A stretch of DNA of 64,000 bases from Clostridiales bacterium. GTDB lineage: Bacteria; Bacillota; Clostridia; Christensenellales; CAG-138. The notes below the pieces were generated by a model. The model searched no databases. It was given only the letters and a program-made list of their open reading frames with translations, and had not been told where the DNA came from. This document shows positions 11,267 through 21,007 of this stretch, piece by piece. The first letter of the stretch is position 1; each line of letters begins with the position of its first letter. The DNA is taken from contig SFIR01000002.1 of assembly GCA_004556165.1 (NCBI GenBank), forward strand, positions 2,118-66,117, in the 5' to 3' direction. The position numbers and the translations under genes were made by a program.

Positions 11267-12118
11267 ATGTACCTGCGCAGTTTTACTTTTCCGTCATCCG
11301 ATACCGAATTCGATTTCATACTATCGGTCAAACGCACCTGCTATGCTTCATACTATCCGTTCCGCGTGCTGGATAAGGACGATCCGACCTGCCTTGAATT
11401 TGAGCCAATAACGTTTTTGTACGGCGGCAACGGCTCGGGGAAAAGCACCGCACTTAATGTAATTGCCGAAGCTCTAAAACTCGATAGGGATACTCTGTTT
11501 AACAGAGGCTCGTTTTTTGAGGACTATATAGACTTATGCAGCTTTGAAACCTCGCTTGAAATTCCGGATAATCGCAGGATTATAACGAGCGATGATGTAT
11601 TTGACTATATGCTCAATATGCGTATGATAAATGACGGAATATCGACGCAGCGTGAACTATTGTTTAAGGATTATATTGATAGAAAGTATTCGTCATTCAA
11701 GGTGAATTCGATACAGGATTATGAGAGCTTGAAGCTGTCAAACAGCGCAAAGAGCAGAACACAGTCAAAATATGTTAAGTCAAATTTAATGCTGAATGTC
11801 AGAGAACATTCCAACGGAGAAAGCGCGCTGAAATATTTTACGGAGAAGATCGAAGATAATGGATTGTATCTTCTTGATGAACCGGAAAACAGTCTTTCTC
11901 CCGAAAGGCAGCTTGATCTGAAAAAGTATATCGAAGACGCGGCGAGATTCTTTTCCTGTCAATTCATAATCGCTACACATTCGCCGTTTTTATTGTCAAT
12001 AAAACATGCTAAAATCTACGATATGGAGGGCCGAAACGTATCGGTCAAAAAATGGACCGAGCTTAGTAATGTGCGCATATATCAGGAATTTTTTAAGGAA
12101 CACTCAAATGAATTTTGA
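11267..12118 (+). CDS. AAA/ABC-type ATPase (AAA_21-like), stand-alone
   Basis: Walker A 'GGNGSGKST', Walker B 'LYLLDEPENSLSP' and H-loop 'IIATHSP'. It starts 16 nt after the PBP stop and has a GGAGGA ribosome-binding site. Confidence 0.8.
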   Translation: MYLRSFTFPSSDTEFDFILSVKRTCYASYYPFRVLDKDDPTCLEFEPITFLYGGNGSGKSTALNVIAEALKLDRDTLFNRGSFFEDYIDLCSFETSLEIPDNRRIITSDDVFDYMLNMRMINDGISTQRELLFKDYIDRKYSSFKVNSIQDYESLKLSNSAKSRTQSKYVKSNLMLNVREHSNGESALKYFTEKIEDNGLYLLDEPENSLSPERQLDLKKYIEDAARFFSCQFIIATHSPFLLSIKHAKIYDMEGRNVSVKKWTELSNVRIYQEFFKEHSNEF

Positions 12119-12128
12119 GCAAATAAAC

Positions 12129-12164
12129 AAGGCTTCGGAAGCTGTCCCGAAGCCTAATTTTTAT
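12129..12164. terminator. bidirectional rho-independent terminator between the ATPase and SDR genes
   Basis: GGCTTCGG (12131-12138) pairs with CCGAAGCC (12147-12154), followed by TAATTTTTA. Confidence 0.65.
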
Positions 12165-12168
12165 CTTG

Positions 12169-12963
12169 TCAGCATGCGTAAATCCTGCCGACTATCAGGT
12201 TTGCAAGCCTTATCGGGAGGAGCCTTATAAGCAAGCAGCATGCTTTATACTTTATACCCACCGTGGATAATGGTTTTGGATGCTTCTTAACGGAGAGCGA
12301 ATACATTTTTTTTGCAATCGCAATCGGCATCATTCCGGTACGCTCATCGCGTTCCATTGTTTCAACAGACCTCCGCATTGCAGAATAGCAATCCTCGCCG
12401 TTAGTAATCTTATCCCTCGCCGCGGTGAATTCGGTCTGAATATCTCCGGGCATAACAGCCGAAAGCTTTATACCGAAAGGCTTGACCTCGTTCGCTAATG
12501 AAAGCACCAATGAATTCAAAGCGGCTTTTGTAGCTGAATAATAGGCCTGGAAGGGTATTGCAATAACACCGGCTACGGAGCTTGTAACGATGATCCTTCC
12601 TGCCGTCTGCGTGCGCATATACGGAAGCACTGCATGAATGCAGCGCACAGCGCCGAAGAAATTCACATCAAATTGCTTTACTGCGGAATCGACATCAGTA
12701 AATTCAACGGATCCAGATATGCCGAATCCGGCATTACAGATAAGTACATCAATCCGACCTGATTGGCTGATGATTTCTTTAATACTCGACTGAACTGCGG
12801 AATCATCAGTAATATCACAAGCTATACTGATTACATTTTCGATGGGGCAGCTGCGGCGACTGAGGCAATATACCTTATCGCCGTTATCGAGGAACAGCTT
12901 TGCGGCTGCAAGCCCAATACCGCTCGATGCGCCGGTTATTACAGTTACACGGCGATCAGTCAT
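12169..12963 (-). CDS. classical short-chain dehydrogenase/reductase (candidate 3-keto-amine reductase)
   Basis: 'VITGASSGIGLAAA' (TGxxxGxG), 'NAG' and the 'YSATKAAL' catalytic YxxxK. Its ATG overlaps the upstream gene's stop (ATGACTGA). Confidence 0.85.
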   Translation of the reverse strand: MTDRRVTVITGASSGIGLAAAKLFLDNGDKVYCLSRRSCPIENVISIACDITDDSAVQSSIKEIISQSGRIDVLICNAGFGISGSVEFTDVDSAVKQFDVNFFGAVRCIHAVLPYMRTQTAGRIIVTSSVAGVIAIPFQAYYSATKAALNSLVLSLANEVKPFGIKLSAVMPGDIQTEFTAARDKITNGEDCYSAMRRSVETMERDERTGMMPIAIAKKMYSLSVKKHPKPLSTVGIKYKACCLLIRLLPIRLANLIVGRIYAC

Positions 12964-14125
12964 TTTTAAGCACGCTTTCGATTATATCAATAGCTTCATC
13001 AAGCAGATCGGTGGTGAGGGTCGCCATATAGCTGGTTCTAAGCAGACATTCGGCAGGCGGCGCAGCAGGAGGAAGCACGGGATTGACATATACACCGGCA
13101 TCAAAGAGCTCCTTTGCCTTGCAAAGGGTACGCATTTCCTCATAGGTGTAGATAGGAATGATCGGAGTAATGCTGTCTCTGATCTTGATATCGCGTTTAC
13201 GCAGTCCGTTGCGCATGTATTCCGCCAGCTTCAGGAGATGCGCGGACATCTCGGGATGCTCCTTGAGAATGTGCAGTGACTCTATCGCGGTCGCGCAGCT
13301 TGCAGGGGGAAGCGATGCACAAAAGATAAACGGACGGGAAGTGTGACGGATGAAATCAATGACCTTGTGATTTCCGGCAACGAATCCTCCGAGAGAAGCA
13401 AGGGACTTACTGAAAGTACCGGTTATCAGGTCAACCTTATCGGTGAGCCCGAAATAATCAGCGGTGCCACGCCCTCCGTTTCCGATAACGCCGAGACCGT
13501 GCGCATCGTCGATCATTACGCGTGCGTTATATTTTTCTGCGAGAGCAACTATCTCGGGCAGCTTACAGATATCGCCGCCCATGCTGAACACGCCATCGCT
13601 GACGATCAGTTTACCGCTTTCAATAGGAACGCTTTTCAGTGCGGATTCAAGATGATCCATATCCGAATGATTGAAACGGATAGTCTTTGCATAGCTTAAC
13701 TTGCAACCATCGTAGATGCTTGCGTGATTATCCTTATCACAGAAGATATAGTCGCTTCTGCCGGCAATCGCACTGATAACACCGAGATTTGTCTGGAACC
13801 CGGTGGAAAAGGTCATAACTGAATCTTTGCCGAGAAAATCTGCAAGCTCCGATTCCAATTGAACATGAAGGTCGAGCGTTCCGTTCAGAAAACGCGAACC
13901 GGAGCATCCTGAACCGTATTTCTCTAATGCATGGATACCGGCTTCGATTACACGCGGATTTGAAGTTAATCCGAGATAGTTGTTTGATCCCAACATAATC
14001 TTGCGCTTGCCTTCCATGATAACTTCAGGAGCCTGCCGTGATTCGAGTTCATGAAAATAAGGGTAGATCTTAGCTTCACGAGCTCTATCGACAAGTTCGA
14101 CCTTGCATTTATCAAATAAATCCAT
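12956..14125 (-). CDS. alpha-oxoamine synthase family PLP enzyme, serine palmitoyltransferase-like
   Basis: 'GSNNYLGL', 'HASIYDGC', the PLP-lysine motif 'GTFSKSLASLGGFV', 'RPFIFCASLPP' and 'PPAAPPAECLLRTS'. As I recall them, these resemble bacterial SPT more than BioF or Kbl. Confidence 0.8.
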   Translation of the reverse strand: MDLFDKCKVELVDRAREAKIYPYFHELESRQAPEVIMEGKRKIMLGSNNYLGLTSNPRVIEAGIHALEKYGSGCSGSRFLNGTLDLHVQLESELADFLGKDSVMTFSTGFQTNLGVISAIAGRSDYIFCDKDNHASIYDGCKLSYAKTIRFNHSDMDHLESALKSVPIESGKLIVSDGVFSMGGDICKLPEIVALAEKYNARVMIDDAHGLGVIGNGGRGTADYFGLTDKVDLITGTFSKSLASLGGFVAGNHKVIDFIRHTSRPFIFCASLPPASCATAIESLHILKEHPEMSAHLLKLAEYMRNGLRKRDIKIRDSITPIIPIYTYEEMRTLCKAKELFDAGVYVNPVLPPAAPPAECLLRTSYMATLTTDLLDEAIDIIESVLKND

Positions 14126-14253
14126 AATCCGCCTCCGTGGTGTAGGGTTTCAAATCCGAAATCGAATTCATATAAATTATACCAACCATATGCACCCTTG
14201 TCAAGTTCAAACGCTTATTTACACCGCATTGACAAAATCGGCAAGGACTGGCT

Positions 14254-14673
14254 TTATTGATCGCAGTTCAGTGAAAGAGCCTTTTTACTGTTCTTTTTTT
14301 CAAAATACTGCTTAATCAAGTTGGAAAAGAAGTTGCCGCGTTCTTCTTCGTAAATCATGAGACCGATTCCGCAAATGAATTCCTGAATAAGTGGGGGATA
14401 TTGCTCATGACATGCCGGGAAAATATCGTGAAGCTTTGTATTATTGGGTCTGAACCATGCGCATTGAATTGCATATTGCATACACCGTGACGATTTCATC
14501 CTTGAAACACCGAAGCACTCATCGATCATGATAAATAAAGATCTTTTGCCGTTATAGTATTGCAGCGGATCCATAATGAACAATTGGATGCAGTATTCAA
14601 GATACCCGAATCCAAGCAGAGAAGGGTTTAATCCGAGCTCAATTAAACGCTCAGATACTGATTGTGATTTCAT
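14254..14673 (-). CDS. Spo0A C-terminal (DNA-binding) domain-only protein, no receiver domain
   Basis: 'LGFGYLEYCIQL' and 'SSRCMQYAIQCAWFRPN...IQEFI' align with Spo0A_C ('KGYLYLREAI', 'RVERAIRHAIEVAWSRGN', 'NSEFIA'). The ATG at 14673 lies 8 nt after AGGAGG. Confidence 0.7.
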   Translation of the reverse strand: MKSQSVSERLIELGLNPSLLGFGYLEYCIQLFIMDPLQYYNGKRSLFIMIDECFGVSRMKSSRCMQYAIQCAWFRPNNTKLHDIFPACHEQYPPLIQEFICGIGLMIYEEERGNFFSNLIKQYFEKKNSKKALSLNCDQ

Positions 14674-15011
14674 TATTCTGTTCCTCCTAATCATGGCTTG
14701 ACGCTTAATCGTCGCAAATATCATAACACAGACAAAAATTATTTACAAATCTGAAAATTATTCTCACGACATCCCTTAATGTTTAATGATTCTCAGAATT
14801 TCGACATAGAAAAAACTTTATTTTGAAAGTAAAAACGGTTCTCATATTGTAATCAGACAATAATATGCATTAGTTCAAACTCGGATAATCTATCTATTTG
14901 GACTAACTAATAAATAAATATATTTTGAAATGTTTGGATTCAGGCTGCCGGTAAACCGAGAAATCAAGGTTTTCTATAAGCGCTTGAAATCGCTTTTTAC
15001 ATAAAATCCCT

Positions 15012-18616: not shown

Positions 18617-21007
18617 ATGAAGAGATTGATATGCATTATCGTTTCAATCGCAATGCTTGTTATGCTTATTCCGATAAGCGCAGAAGTTAATGTTGACCTT
18701 ATCAACACGGGCTCACTTGAAATTGACGATGACGGCAGCGACGGCTATTCCGGAGATTATGTTGTCATCTATAATCCCGGTGCATCTACGTCCGGTGCAA
18801 GCACGGGCAATATGACGGGACTTATCGAAACCCAGGTCGGGGATTCGTCCGTAAAAGGGGAAATTGATTCTGACCCGAGAGGCTACGTCATTGATGTTGA
18901 CGATATCATTGCCGAAGCGGATAAAGCTCTTGACCTTGCATCCGATGCCATAGGGGAGACCCTTTCCTTTGAGGTCGGCGACACCCACACCTTCAGCCTG
19001 TATTCAAGCTATTGTCCCTTGCCCAACTCAAGTGTTCAGTTTGAGGTGCTTGCAAAGGGTGAACACTGCTATATCTGGACTCCGACTTCTACTGCGGATA
19101 ACGTATATCCGCTTGATGAGATCGATGAAAGCTTCGCTCAGATCTGTGCGGACGAATTCGATTCGAAGTTTGACCTTATGCAGTCGTCCTTCGGCAACCA
19201 TACCAACGGCAGTCAGGGCGACGGCAGGCTGAATATTCTTTACTATAATATTGATGACGGCTGGACTCCCGGAAACGGCTATGTTGCCGGTTTCTTCTCC
19301 GCCTCGGATATTTATTCCAACGGCATGCCGATACTGAATATTGATACATATCCCGGAGTTTATTATGTGACTACCGGCAACGAGGTCATTATTGATATCG
19401 AAGATACCTACGGCACCATGGTGCATGAGTATCAGCATCTCATCAATTATTCCGTAGGCAGCTATAATATTGATACATGGCTCAATGAGTGCATGAGCGC
19501 AGCAGCCGAGGAGATTTGCTATCCCGGCAGCAGCGTATCGTACCGCATTCAGTCGTGGCAGAACTACAAGTTCAGCGTAAATCAGGATTGGCTCAATCCT
19601 CCGGCGGAGTATGAGTACCAGCCCTCATGGTCGCTGCACAATGGGTATTCGATGTATGATTGGAGCAATTACCTTGAAATGTCGGACCGGCTTGCACTCT
19701 ATGCGCAGGTTTCGCTCTATGCACAGTACATCTATTCTCAATACGGCAATTCAACCTTCAGGACTTTGCTTGAAAGCATGGCAGGCGGACGTTCCTTTAC
19801 GAGTGCATTCGAACAGACAACGGGCCAATCCGCATCCGATTTTACTAAGAATTTCAGGATTGCACTGACTGCCAATGACCCGAATTACGAAGACGGCATC
19901 TATGGCTTCAGGCTTCAGGAGGGATATGATCCCGAAGAGTATTACGGAGTTGAGAATATATATAACTGGCTTTCTCCCGTCGTATTCACGGGCAGCAGCT
20001 GTTCTGTAAAAGGCGGCGGCGCAATAACGGTTAAGCCCGTAGGCGGAGTCTATTACCCGCCCACCGGTGCTTCTTCTTCGCTCAGGTATTACGGCATTAC
20101 CCTTGATGCGGAGGAACCCGAACCCGTAGCTCTTACGGGAATAAGCCTGAATCCTGCTATTGCAGAGGTATATGCGGGAGGTTCCGTCAGAATAAGTGCT
20201 GTCCGCGAACCTGAGAACGCTAATAATTACGAGCTCACTTGGGAGAGCAGCAATACCTCCGTTGCTACCGTCAGCGGAAGCAAAAAGGCTGCAACCGTCA
20301 CCGGCGTAAGCGCAGGAACTGCAACTATCAGCGTTACTGCGCATGATCTCTTGAATGATCTGTATTATTACGCTTCCGCAGTTGTGACCGTTAAACCGAT
20401 GCCGACTCTGAATGAAGCACTGAATATTCAGAATGGCACTCTGGAATTCACCTCCACGGGCGCATATCCATGGAACGTTGTTATCTCGGGCGAACGGGCA
20501 TATGCAAAGAGCACAAATGAGGAAGTAAGCAGTTCGACTTCCGTGGTTTCGCTCACTGTTAATATGAATGCAGGCGATACGATGAGCTTTGACTGGTTCG
20601 TCAGCAGTGAGTCAAATTATGATAAGCTTATCTTTAAGGTGAACGGCAGCGAGCAGGAGTCCATTTCCGGTCAGGTGGATTGGACGACGGTTTCATACAC
20701 TGCCGCAACAACACGAAGCTATACATTTACTTGGACTTATTCCAAGGATGGCAGCGTAAACAGCAATTCAGACTGCGGCGGACTTGATAACGTTTATGTT
20801 CCCGGATATGAGGGTATGCCGTATCAGAAGGGCGACGTGGATATGAACGGCGTAGTCGATTCGATCGACGTTGTGCTGATTATCCGCTTCACTCTCGGGC
20901 TTGTGCCGCTTAACCAAACTCAGCAGTACCTTGCAGATATGGATGACAGCGGCGCCGTTGATAATATCGACGCGGTACTGGCACTCCGCTGCGTACTCAA
21001 TCCCTGA
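18617..21007 (+). CDS. secreted HExxH zinc metallopeptidase with Big_2 Ig-like domain and C-terminal type I dockerin
   Basis: Signal peptide 'MKRLICIIVSIAMLVMLIPISAEV'. 'MVHEYQHLINY' contains HExxH. Big_2-like 'TWESSNTSVATVSG...GTATISVTA'. The dockerin has duplicated 'DVDMNGVVDSIDV' / 'DMDDSGAVDNIDA' Ca-binding loops. Confidence 0.8.
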   Translation: MKRLICIIVSIAMLVMLIPISAEVNVDLINTGSLEIDDDGSDGYSGDYVVIYNPGASTSGASTGNMTGLIETQVGDSSVKGEIDSDPRGYVIDVDDIIAEADKALDLASDAIGETLSFEVGDTHTFSLYSSYCPLPNSSVQFEVLAKGEHCYIWTPTSTADNVYPLDEIDESFAQICADEFDSKFDLMQSSFGNHTNGSQGDGRLNILYYNIDDGWTPGNGYVAGFFSASDIYSNGMPILNIDTYPGVYYVTTGNEVIIDIEDTYGTMVHEYQHLINYSVGSYNIDTWLNECMSAAAEEICYPGSSVSYRIQSWQNYKFSVNQDWLNPPAEYEYQPSWSLHNGYSMYDWSNYLEMSDRLALYAQVSLYAQYIYSQYGNSTFRTLLESMAGGRSFTSAFEQTTGQSASDFTKNFRIALTANDPNYEDGIYGFRLQEGYDPEEYYGVENIYNWLSPVVFTGSSCSVKGGGAITVKPVGGVYYPPTGASSSLRYYGITLDAEEPEPVALTGISLNPAIAEVYAGGSVRISAVREPENANNYELTWESSNTSVATVSGSKKAATVTGVSAGTATISVTAHDLLNDLYYYASAVVTVKPMPTLNEALNIQNGTLEFTSTGAYPWNVVISGERAYAKSTNEEVSSSTSVVSLTVNMNAGDTMSFDWFVSSESNYDKLIFKVNGSEQESISGQVDWTTVSYTAATTRSYTFTWTYSKDGSVNSNSDCGGLDNVYVPGYEGMPYQKGDVDMNGVVDSIDVVLIIRFTLGLVPLNQTQQYLADMDDSGAVDNIDAVLALRCVLNP

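Follow-up and report, generated by a model that had tools for sequence, protein, structure and literature searches.

A serine palmitoyltransferase-like gene overlapping a reductase gene in gut Clostridia, predicted to make a sphinganine-type long-chain base

Do Clostridia of the gut carry genes for making sphingoid bases? The question is raised by two overlapping genes in a stretch of 64,000 nucleotides (contig SFIR01000002.1 of assembly GCA_004556165.1, hereafter the window) from a Clostridiales bacterium of the Christensenellales, one of which encodes an alpha-oxoamine synthase (AOS) that uses pyridoxal phosphate (PLP) and the other a short-chain dehydrogenase/reductase (SDR). A reading of the letters alone, which we call the sequence-only reading, had suggested that the AOS resembles bacterial serine palmitoyltransferase (SPT) rather than Kbl or BioF and that a condensation followed by a 3-keto reduction would give a long-chain base. 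Based on family models, solved structures, active-site residues, phylogeny and gene neighbourhoods, we consider it probable that the AOS and the SDR perform this two-step chemistry and lead from serine to a sphinganine-type base. In the proposed pathway, the PLP enzyme would condense L-serine with a long-chain acyl thioester, with loss of CO2, to 3-ketosphinganine, and the translationally coupled SDR would use NADPH to reduce the 3-keto group, which would yield a sphinganine-type long-chain base. Reduction would precede N-acylation, which is the order of the eukaryotic and Bacteroides pathways. What we infer rather than observe is which substrates, which acyl donor (CoA or ACP, the acyl carrier protein) and which cofactor the pair uses, and what the chain length and branching are. 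The two genes and their junction are as follows.

12956-14125, minus strand: SPT-like AOS, 389 amino acids, with the PLP lysine at K240
12169-12963, minus strand: KdsR-like classical SDR, 264 amino acids
12956..12963, minus strand: overlap of the AOS and SDR genes, 8 nt, ATGACTGA, which holds the SDR start and the AOS stop

Both minus-strand open reading frames were found exactly where the sequence-only reading had placed them, and all four of the motifs that it had quoted are present in the AOS translation: HASIYDGC at residues 134-141, GTFSKSLASLGGFV at 236-249, RPFIFCASLPP at 264-274 and PPAAPPAECLLRTS at 352-365. It had also described an overlap between the AOS stop and the SDR start, which holds: the stop codon TGA (12958-12956) lies inside ATGACTGA and the ATG of the SDR is at 12963-12961. 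The 8-nt overlap suggests that the two genes are translationally coupled.

The AOS has the class I/II aminotransferase fold (PF00155 in Pfam), and among the NCBIfam models the best match was NF047600, the Bacteroidota-type SPT, with 522 bits. This is a lead of 126 bits over the beta-proteobacterial SPT model (396 bits), which was followed by BioF (373 bits), Kbl (372 bits), ALAS (260 bits) and the CqsA/LqsA type (208 bits). The solved structures ranked similarly, with the SPT of Sphingobacterium multivorum (3A2B/8GUH) in first place at 410 bits and with a gap-free alignment across 378 residues, then the Sphingomonas SPTs at about 300 bits, the Thermus AOS and Kbl at 230-258 bits, a cysteate fatty acyltransferase (CFAT; 28eh) at 219 bits and BioF at about 200 bits. 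The identity of the AOS is ~50% to the solved SPT and about 46-53% to the proteins of the Bacteroidota SPT clade. Together with the tree, in which the AOS groups with SPTs, the best family model and the best structure bear out the preference of the sequence-only reading for SPT over Kbl and BioF. By these comparisons the AOS is SPT-like rather than a Kbl, a BioF or a cysteate acyltransferase.

The active site agrees with this placement. We mapped onto the AOS 21 residues of the S. multivorum enzyme (SmSPT) that contact PLP or L-serine, directly or through water, or that form the acyl-site wall and the hydrophobic cores (PMC10196870); the number in the query is the number in that paper minus 4. 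The AOS is identical to SmSPT at 20 of the 21 positions, and the query residues K240, H134, D206 and H209 align with SmSPT K244, H138, D210 and H213. The only difference is a main-chain contact, Met271 of SmSPT, which is Ile267 in the query, and isoleucine is usual at this position in the sister SPT clade. Within the clade of 92 sequences to which the query belongs, all 21 mapped positions vary little or not at all. The pocket also bears on the possibility, raised by the sequence-only reading, that the pair is a cysteate fatty acyltransferase with its reductase and makes capnine or sulfonolipid bases. The reaction logic of CapB/SulA and CapC is indeed the same as that of an AOS followed by an SDR. 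However, a 2026 structure paper places Ala82 and the trans-subunit Lys280 around cysteate in CFAT (PMC13692747), and at these positions the query has the SPT-type residues Ser77 and Ala270, while the CFAT structure gives the AOS 219 bits against 410 bits for SPT. We found no support for the sulfonolipid proposal and regard it as very improbable.

A housekeeping role is the other obvious explanation for an AOS, which might be the Kbl of threonine degradation or the BioF of biotin synthesis and stand next to an unrelated SDR. Some members of the wider clade are labelled '8-amino-7-oxononanoate synthase' by JGI/NCBI, and the BioF and Kbl models still give the AOS about 370 bits. Against this, the source genome has one other AOS gene (C9:10094-11275, 393 amino acids, 37% identity to the query AOS), which adjoins a 347-residue protein of the Zn alcohol-dehydrogenase type (C9:11297-12340) that we read as the Zn-dependent L-threonine 3-dehydrogenase (Tdh). 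This region, C9:10094-12340, is a classical kbl-tdh pair and holds the true Kbl of the genome, and on contig C9 it adjoins a further aminotransferase and trpS. At least nine of the 21 mapped active-site positions differ in this Kbl. Biotin synthase BioB was not found above the cut-off in the source genome or in 15 relatives of its genus (0 of 16; the best score was 82 bits, the cut-off being 225), even though the AOS is universal in the genus. Moreover, the linkage of the SDR to the AOS is conserved and co-evolving. The sequence-only reading had named a firm clustering with Kbl or BioF, together with a biotin or threonine-degradation context elsewhere, as what would speak against it; this is not what we found, as the AOS groups with SPTs, kbl-tdh is encoded separately and BioB is missing. 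The housekeeping explanation thus appears to be largely refuted, and we leave it next to no weight.

The phylogeny was examined in a maximum-likelihood tree of 133 AOS sequences that was rooted on the Kbl of the source genome. The query falls in the clade of 92 sequences (SH-aLRT 91), most of which come from Clostridia and other Bacillota, with 15 copies from Paludibacteraceae or Bacteroidales nested inside it, as well as copies from Muribaculaceae, Sphaerochaeta, Izemoplasmatales and Bacilli. Its sister clade contains the S. multivorum SPT, two copies whose scores reach or approach the curated SPT cut-off (674 and 638 bits), most of the sampled Bacteroidota, and Desulfurella, Zixibacteria and groups related to these; the Sphingomonas SPT lies outside both clades. 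Named relatives, with 74-83% identity, are from metagenome-assembled genomes (MAGs) of Christensenellaceae, Christensenellales and Clostridia that were recovered from pig, human and ruminant guts. The sequence-only reading had described such lipids as best known from other groups and not from spore-forming Clostridia. The gene is not rare in this class: in an even sample of the Clostridia, 52 of 399 species genomes have an SPT-like AOS, with 510-597 bits on the SPT model and none that reaches 640, and it was present in 17 of 17 genomes of the genus. Cultured carriers of the wider clade are Caldicoprobacter guelmensis, C. faecalis and C. oshimai, where the gene is labelled BioF or simply a generic aminotransferase. 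A search of one full-text library for accounts of Spt or sphingolipids in Christensenellales or Clostridia returned none. We propose that the query clade is a putative new clade within the SPT and KDSR kinds of enzyme; its host group was unexpected, and there it is widespread.

The reductase that the pathway calls for would be the SDR. It is a classical SDR according to Pfam, with the motifs TGASSGIG at residues 10-17, Arg36-Arg37 after beta-2, NAG at 77-79 and the residues Ser129, Tyr142 and Lys146. The last three are invariant in 38 AOS-linked SDRs, in most of which the glycine-rich motif, the arginine after beta-2 and the other motifs are kept as well. According to the standard SDR classification, the Arg36-Arg37 pair suggests a preference for NADPH. 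The best NCBIfam model was NF049977, the Bacteroides 3-ketodihydrosphingosine reductase KdsR, with 224 bits, and this match, together with the SPT-like AOS, supports, on sequence grounds, the condensation and 3-keto reduction that the sequence-only reading had put forward.

The genomic linkage is stronger evidence than this family match. The order AOS then SDR on one strand was found at about 50 distinct loci from many lineages, with a spacing of -23 to +141 nt and one exception at +326 nt, and the two genes overlap in many cases; a spacing of -8 nt recurs in many orthologous loci. In two other Clostridia families (G295 and G192), a KdsR-like SDR of 288 bits lies divergently adjacent to the AOS. 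A full-length SDR homologue was present in 25 of 26 AOS-positive relatives, including genomes in which no SDR is adjacent, and the SDR tree mirrors the AOS tree down to the position of the Bacteroidales copies. The pairing is not due to chance, and as judged from these comparisons the pair is conserved and co-evolving.

In contrast to the SDR, no other neighbour was conserved across the loci. For the later steps of a ceramide pathway, a bCerS-like profile was built (cluster c25, alignment A1) from the GNAT-like genes of 367-374 amino acids located after SPT in Desulfurella, Zixibacteria and Ignavibacteria. In five Bacteroidota genomes, too, spt has a gene of this kind, about 370 amino acids long, as its direct neighbour, because of which it is probably bCerS; across the four groups the loci are G475:C5, G517:C1, G465:C1, G528:C9, G520:C1, L098-L102 and L105. 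No NCBIfam model names the gene and no Pfam model matched it above threshold. As a partner of the pathway in the order of the query, the bCerS-like gene was dropped: it is about as frequent in genomes with the AOS (17 of 26) as in those without it (8 of 15), and therefore does not track the pathway, and it was not found in the source genome. Since no conserved partner was seen beyond the SDR and the bCerS-like gene does not follow the AOS, the conserved product would be the long-chain base itself, and a sphinganine-type base is the most likely one. In the host, this base could stay free or could be N-acylated, phosphorylated or glycosylated.

Two further observations concern large proteins in relatives. 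A protein of 1075 amino acids beside the AOS and the SDR in L056 and L057 was considered as a fused partner and rejected; it reads, from its sequence rather than from a search, as the large subunit of carbamoyl-phosphate synthase. Some relatives in the order also encode fusions of 1079-1111 amino acids, in which an AMP-binding domain resembling fatty-acyl-AMP ligases, a PP-binding (ACP) domain and an AOS are joined (L177 2204-6355 in G032:C9 and L178 4641-7880 in G026:C1). In G032 an SDR lies 7 nt ahead of the fusion and a stand-alone SPT-like gene is absent, and in G026 the gene of a DegV fatty-acid-binding protein follows. Judged by its domains, this fusion may represent a second pathway, a self-loading one, towards long-chain amino ketones or alcohols.

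Several observations weigh against a sphinganine-type pathway and have to be set beside this evidence. The AOS, at 522 bits, is below the curated NCBIfam equivalog cut-off of NF047600 (640 bits), and the SDR, at 224 bits, is below the 400 bits that are set for KdsR. A generic SDR subfamily model scores just 15 bits lower than KdsR, so the SDR alone is not diagnostic, and its family is broad, with matches of the KdsR model in B. subtilis and Lactococcus as well. Among the 15 relatives that lack the AOS, 5 still have an SDR homologue, though a weaker one. The query clade is distinct from every SPT that has been assayed, and its tree has a single Kbl outgroup lineage and leaves out BioF, ALAS and CFAT sequences, which are placed further off by score ranks alone. 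Finally, the bCerS-like profile found nothing in the source genome (91% complete; best score 16.7 bits) or in 8 other genomes of the genus, that is, in 9 of 17, and with no such N-acyltransferase in the source genome a complete ceramide pathway is not evident.

With regard to the cut-offs, that of the SPT model is narrow. Among 81 sampled Bacteroidota genomes, 60 had a match and one reached 640 bits, with about 58 matches at 443-517 bits, several of which adjoin a bCerS-like gene; the cut-off of KdsR was reached in none of the 14 genomes tested. Both curated cut-offs, NF047600 and NF049977, look too strict, and as they are seldom passed, most bacterial Spt and KdsR genes carry generic names.

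The low score of the SDR is also what gives some ground to the idea that the AOS is an SPT whose neighbour is not its reductase, in which case the SDR would have a different lipid or metabolite as its substrate, and the 3-keto base would serve directly or, as in Caulobacter, would first be N-acylated. The small lead of KdsR over the generic model and the members of the clade in which the AOS stands alone among housekeeping genes would fit such a division. However, distant lineages keep the AOS and the SDR side by side in two different arrangements, the AOS and SDR trees are congruent and the AOS-positive genomes that lack an adjacent SDR have a full-length homologue elsewhere, which makes this explanation quite improbable. 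The distance of the clade from assayed SPTs, its score below the cut-off and the lack of a ceramide synthase in the source genome leave rather more room for the same chemistry with other substrates, in which the amino acid would be alanine, glycine, threonine or yet another, or the thioester would carry a medium-chain or unusual acyl group, and the product would be a deoxy-sphingoid or another 2-amino-3-hydroxy lipid or signal. SPTs are known to accept alanine and glycine at low efficiency (PMC10196870). On the other hand, the network that holds the hydroxyl and carboxylate groups of serine in SmSPT (Asn52, Gly80, Ser81, His138, Ser243 and the contacts to the PLP phosphate) is fully kept, as are Tyr27 and Phe83 of the acyl wall, and these residues are among those conserved throughout the clade. 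We thus hold other substrates to be unlikely and L-serine with a long-chain acyl thioester to be the better choice.

A comparison with known systems shows where the predicted pathway is ordinary and where it departs. The query shares with the SPT of S. multivorum (3A2B, 8GUH) and the Bacteroidota SPTs (NF047600) a full-length alignment free of gaps, the PLP lysine and PLP contacts, and the serine-binding and acyl-wall residues, and all of them are soluble, stand-alone proteins of about 390 amino acids. It differs from them in its position, in a sister clade of its own where monoderm Clostridia predominate, and in the neighbouring gene, which is an SDR for the query and a bCerS-like GNAT gene for the spt of the Bacteroidota clade. 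KdsR of B. thetaiotaomicron (BT_0972; NF049977; PMC9278070) and the query SDR are both of the classical NADPH type with about 265 amino acids and the same predicted reaction, in spite of the distance in score. The locus tags of BT_0972 and of the spt gene of B. thetaiotaomicron are about a hundred apart, and the two genes are presumably not adjacent, whereas the query genes overlap. The Caulobacter-type pathway, which comprises Spt, an ACP, an ACP synthetase, bCerS and CerR, likewise begins with an enzyme of the SPT family. In contrast to it, neither a dedicated ACP nor an ACP synthetase lies near the query genes, the genome has no bCerS-like gene, and the operon would imply reduction before acylation rather than after it. 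The hosts differ as well: the query host has no LpxC, and LpxC was absent from all 25 relatives tested, which fits a monoderm envelope, so the query host, we infer, is without an outer membrane of lipopolysaccharide. The cysteate fatty acyltransferases (SulA/CapB; PDB 7U7H, 28EH) share with the query the AOS fold and the logic of a long-chain-base synthase; the pocket residues of the query are nevertheless of the SPT type and its similarity to them is much lower than to SPT.

The operon seems to have crossed phylum boundaries. In 20 non-Clostridia genomes (14 of Bacteroidales or Paludibacteraceae, together with MAGs of Muribaculaceae, a spirochaete, Izemoplasmatales and Bacilli), the Clostridia-type AOS was accompanied by a Kbl-like gene only and by no other SPT-like gene. 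The AOS-SDR pair of Clostridia type was seen in rumen MAGs of Paludibacteraceae or Bacteroidales (L044, L050, L051, L060, L068, L072-L074, L076, L079, L080, L083, L084 and L090), and in both gene trees this pair is nested within Clostridia. Apparently, both genes moved together from Clostridia to Bacteroidales/Paludibacteraceae, where, judging from the gene content, the operon may stand in for a native spt.

The remaining features of the locus are listed below.

14176..14204, minus strand: promoter-like site, TTGACA, 17 nt and a TG-extended TATAAT, with 12 of 12 consensus matches (consensus scan and reading of the sequence)
14132..14136, minus strand: Shine-Dalgarno sequence GGAGG, 6 nt before the ATG of the AOS, from reading of the sequence
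12130..12155, no strand assigned: GC-rich bidirectional terminator hairpin with a T-run on each strand, just beyond the SDR stop
11267-12118, plus strand: convergent AAA-ATPase gene, which has the hairpin at 12130..12155 in common with the SDR

The AOS and the SDR probably form a self-contained bicistronic operon that consists of a predicted promoter, the spt-like gene, the kdsR-like gene and a predicted terminator. The neighbours of the pair encode a PBP, the AAA ATPase, a protein with only the Spo0A_C domain, a TPR protein and an aminotransferase; none of them is an ACP, an acyl-ACP synthetase or a ceramide synthase, in agreement with the sequence-only reading. The G+C content at the locus is unremarkable. 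The exact AOS protein was found in 72 blocks of an assembly index; those for which the location was listed represent several different metagenome samples and have the same neighbours. The source genome (G000) has 1.72 Mb. Directly upstream of the operon, a protein of 156 amino acids (14254-14724, minus strand) resembles Spo0A in the C-terminal DNA-binding domain alone and has no receiver domain, and it accompanies the operon in independent metagenome contigs. Further along the window, a protein of 796 amino acids (18617-21007, plus strand) combines a Big_2 domain with a type I dockerin at its C-terminus and suggests a cellulosome-like surface system in the source organism.

Sphingolipids of gut bacteria have been studied as products of Bacteroidota that enter the ceramide pools of the host and modulate immunity, and the pathway has been credited almost only to this phylum. 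In metagenome surveys, only the spt of Bacteroides type is counted, or else a catch-all orthologous group, for example COG0156, and the curated models leave the query clade unnamed, with records that say 'aminotransferase' or 'BioF'. The host of the operon described here is a monoderm, spore-forming bacterium of the Christensenellales type. It is possible, though on balance doubtful, that a large and so far unrecognised set of monoderm Clostridia from the gut, the rumen and thermophilic habitats, about 13% of the sampled species, make sphinganine-type bases by means of the spt-kdsR unit, that these bases either remain unmodified or feed into lipids of a class, or a path of N-acylation, that is new to bacteria, and that the sphingoid lipids of the gut that are credited to Bacteroidota are partly Clostridial. 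Should the pair function as predicted, abundant Clostridia of the gut and rumen would be a second source of sphingoid bases, the annotation thresholds of Spt and KdsR would need to be revised and sphingolipids would no longer be confined to the outer membranes of diderm bacteria.

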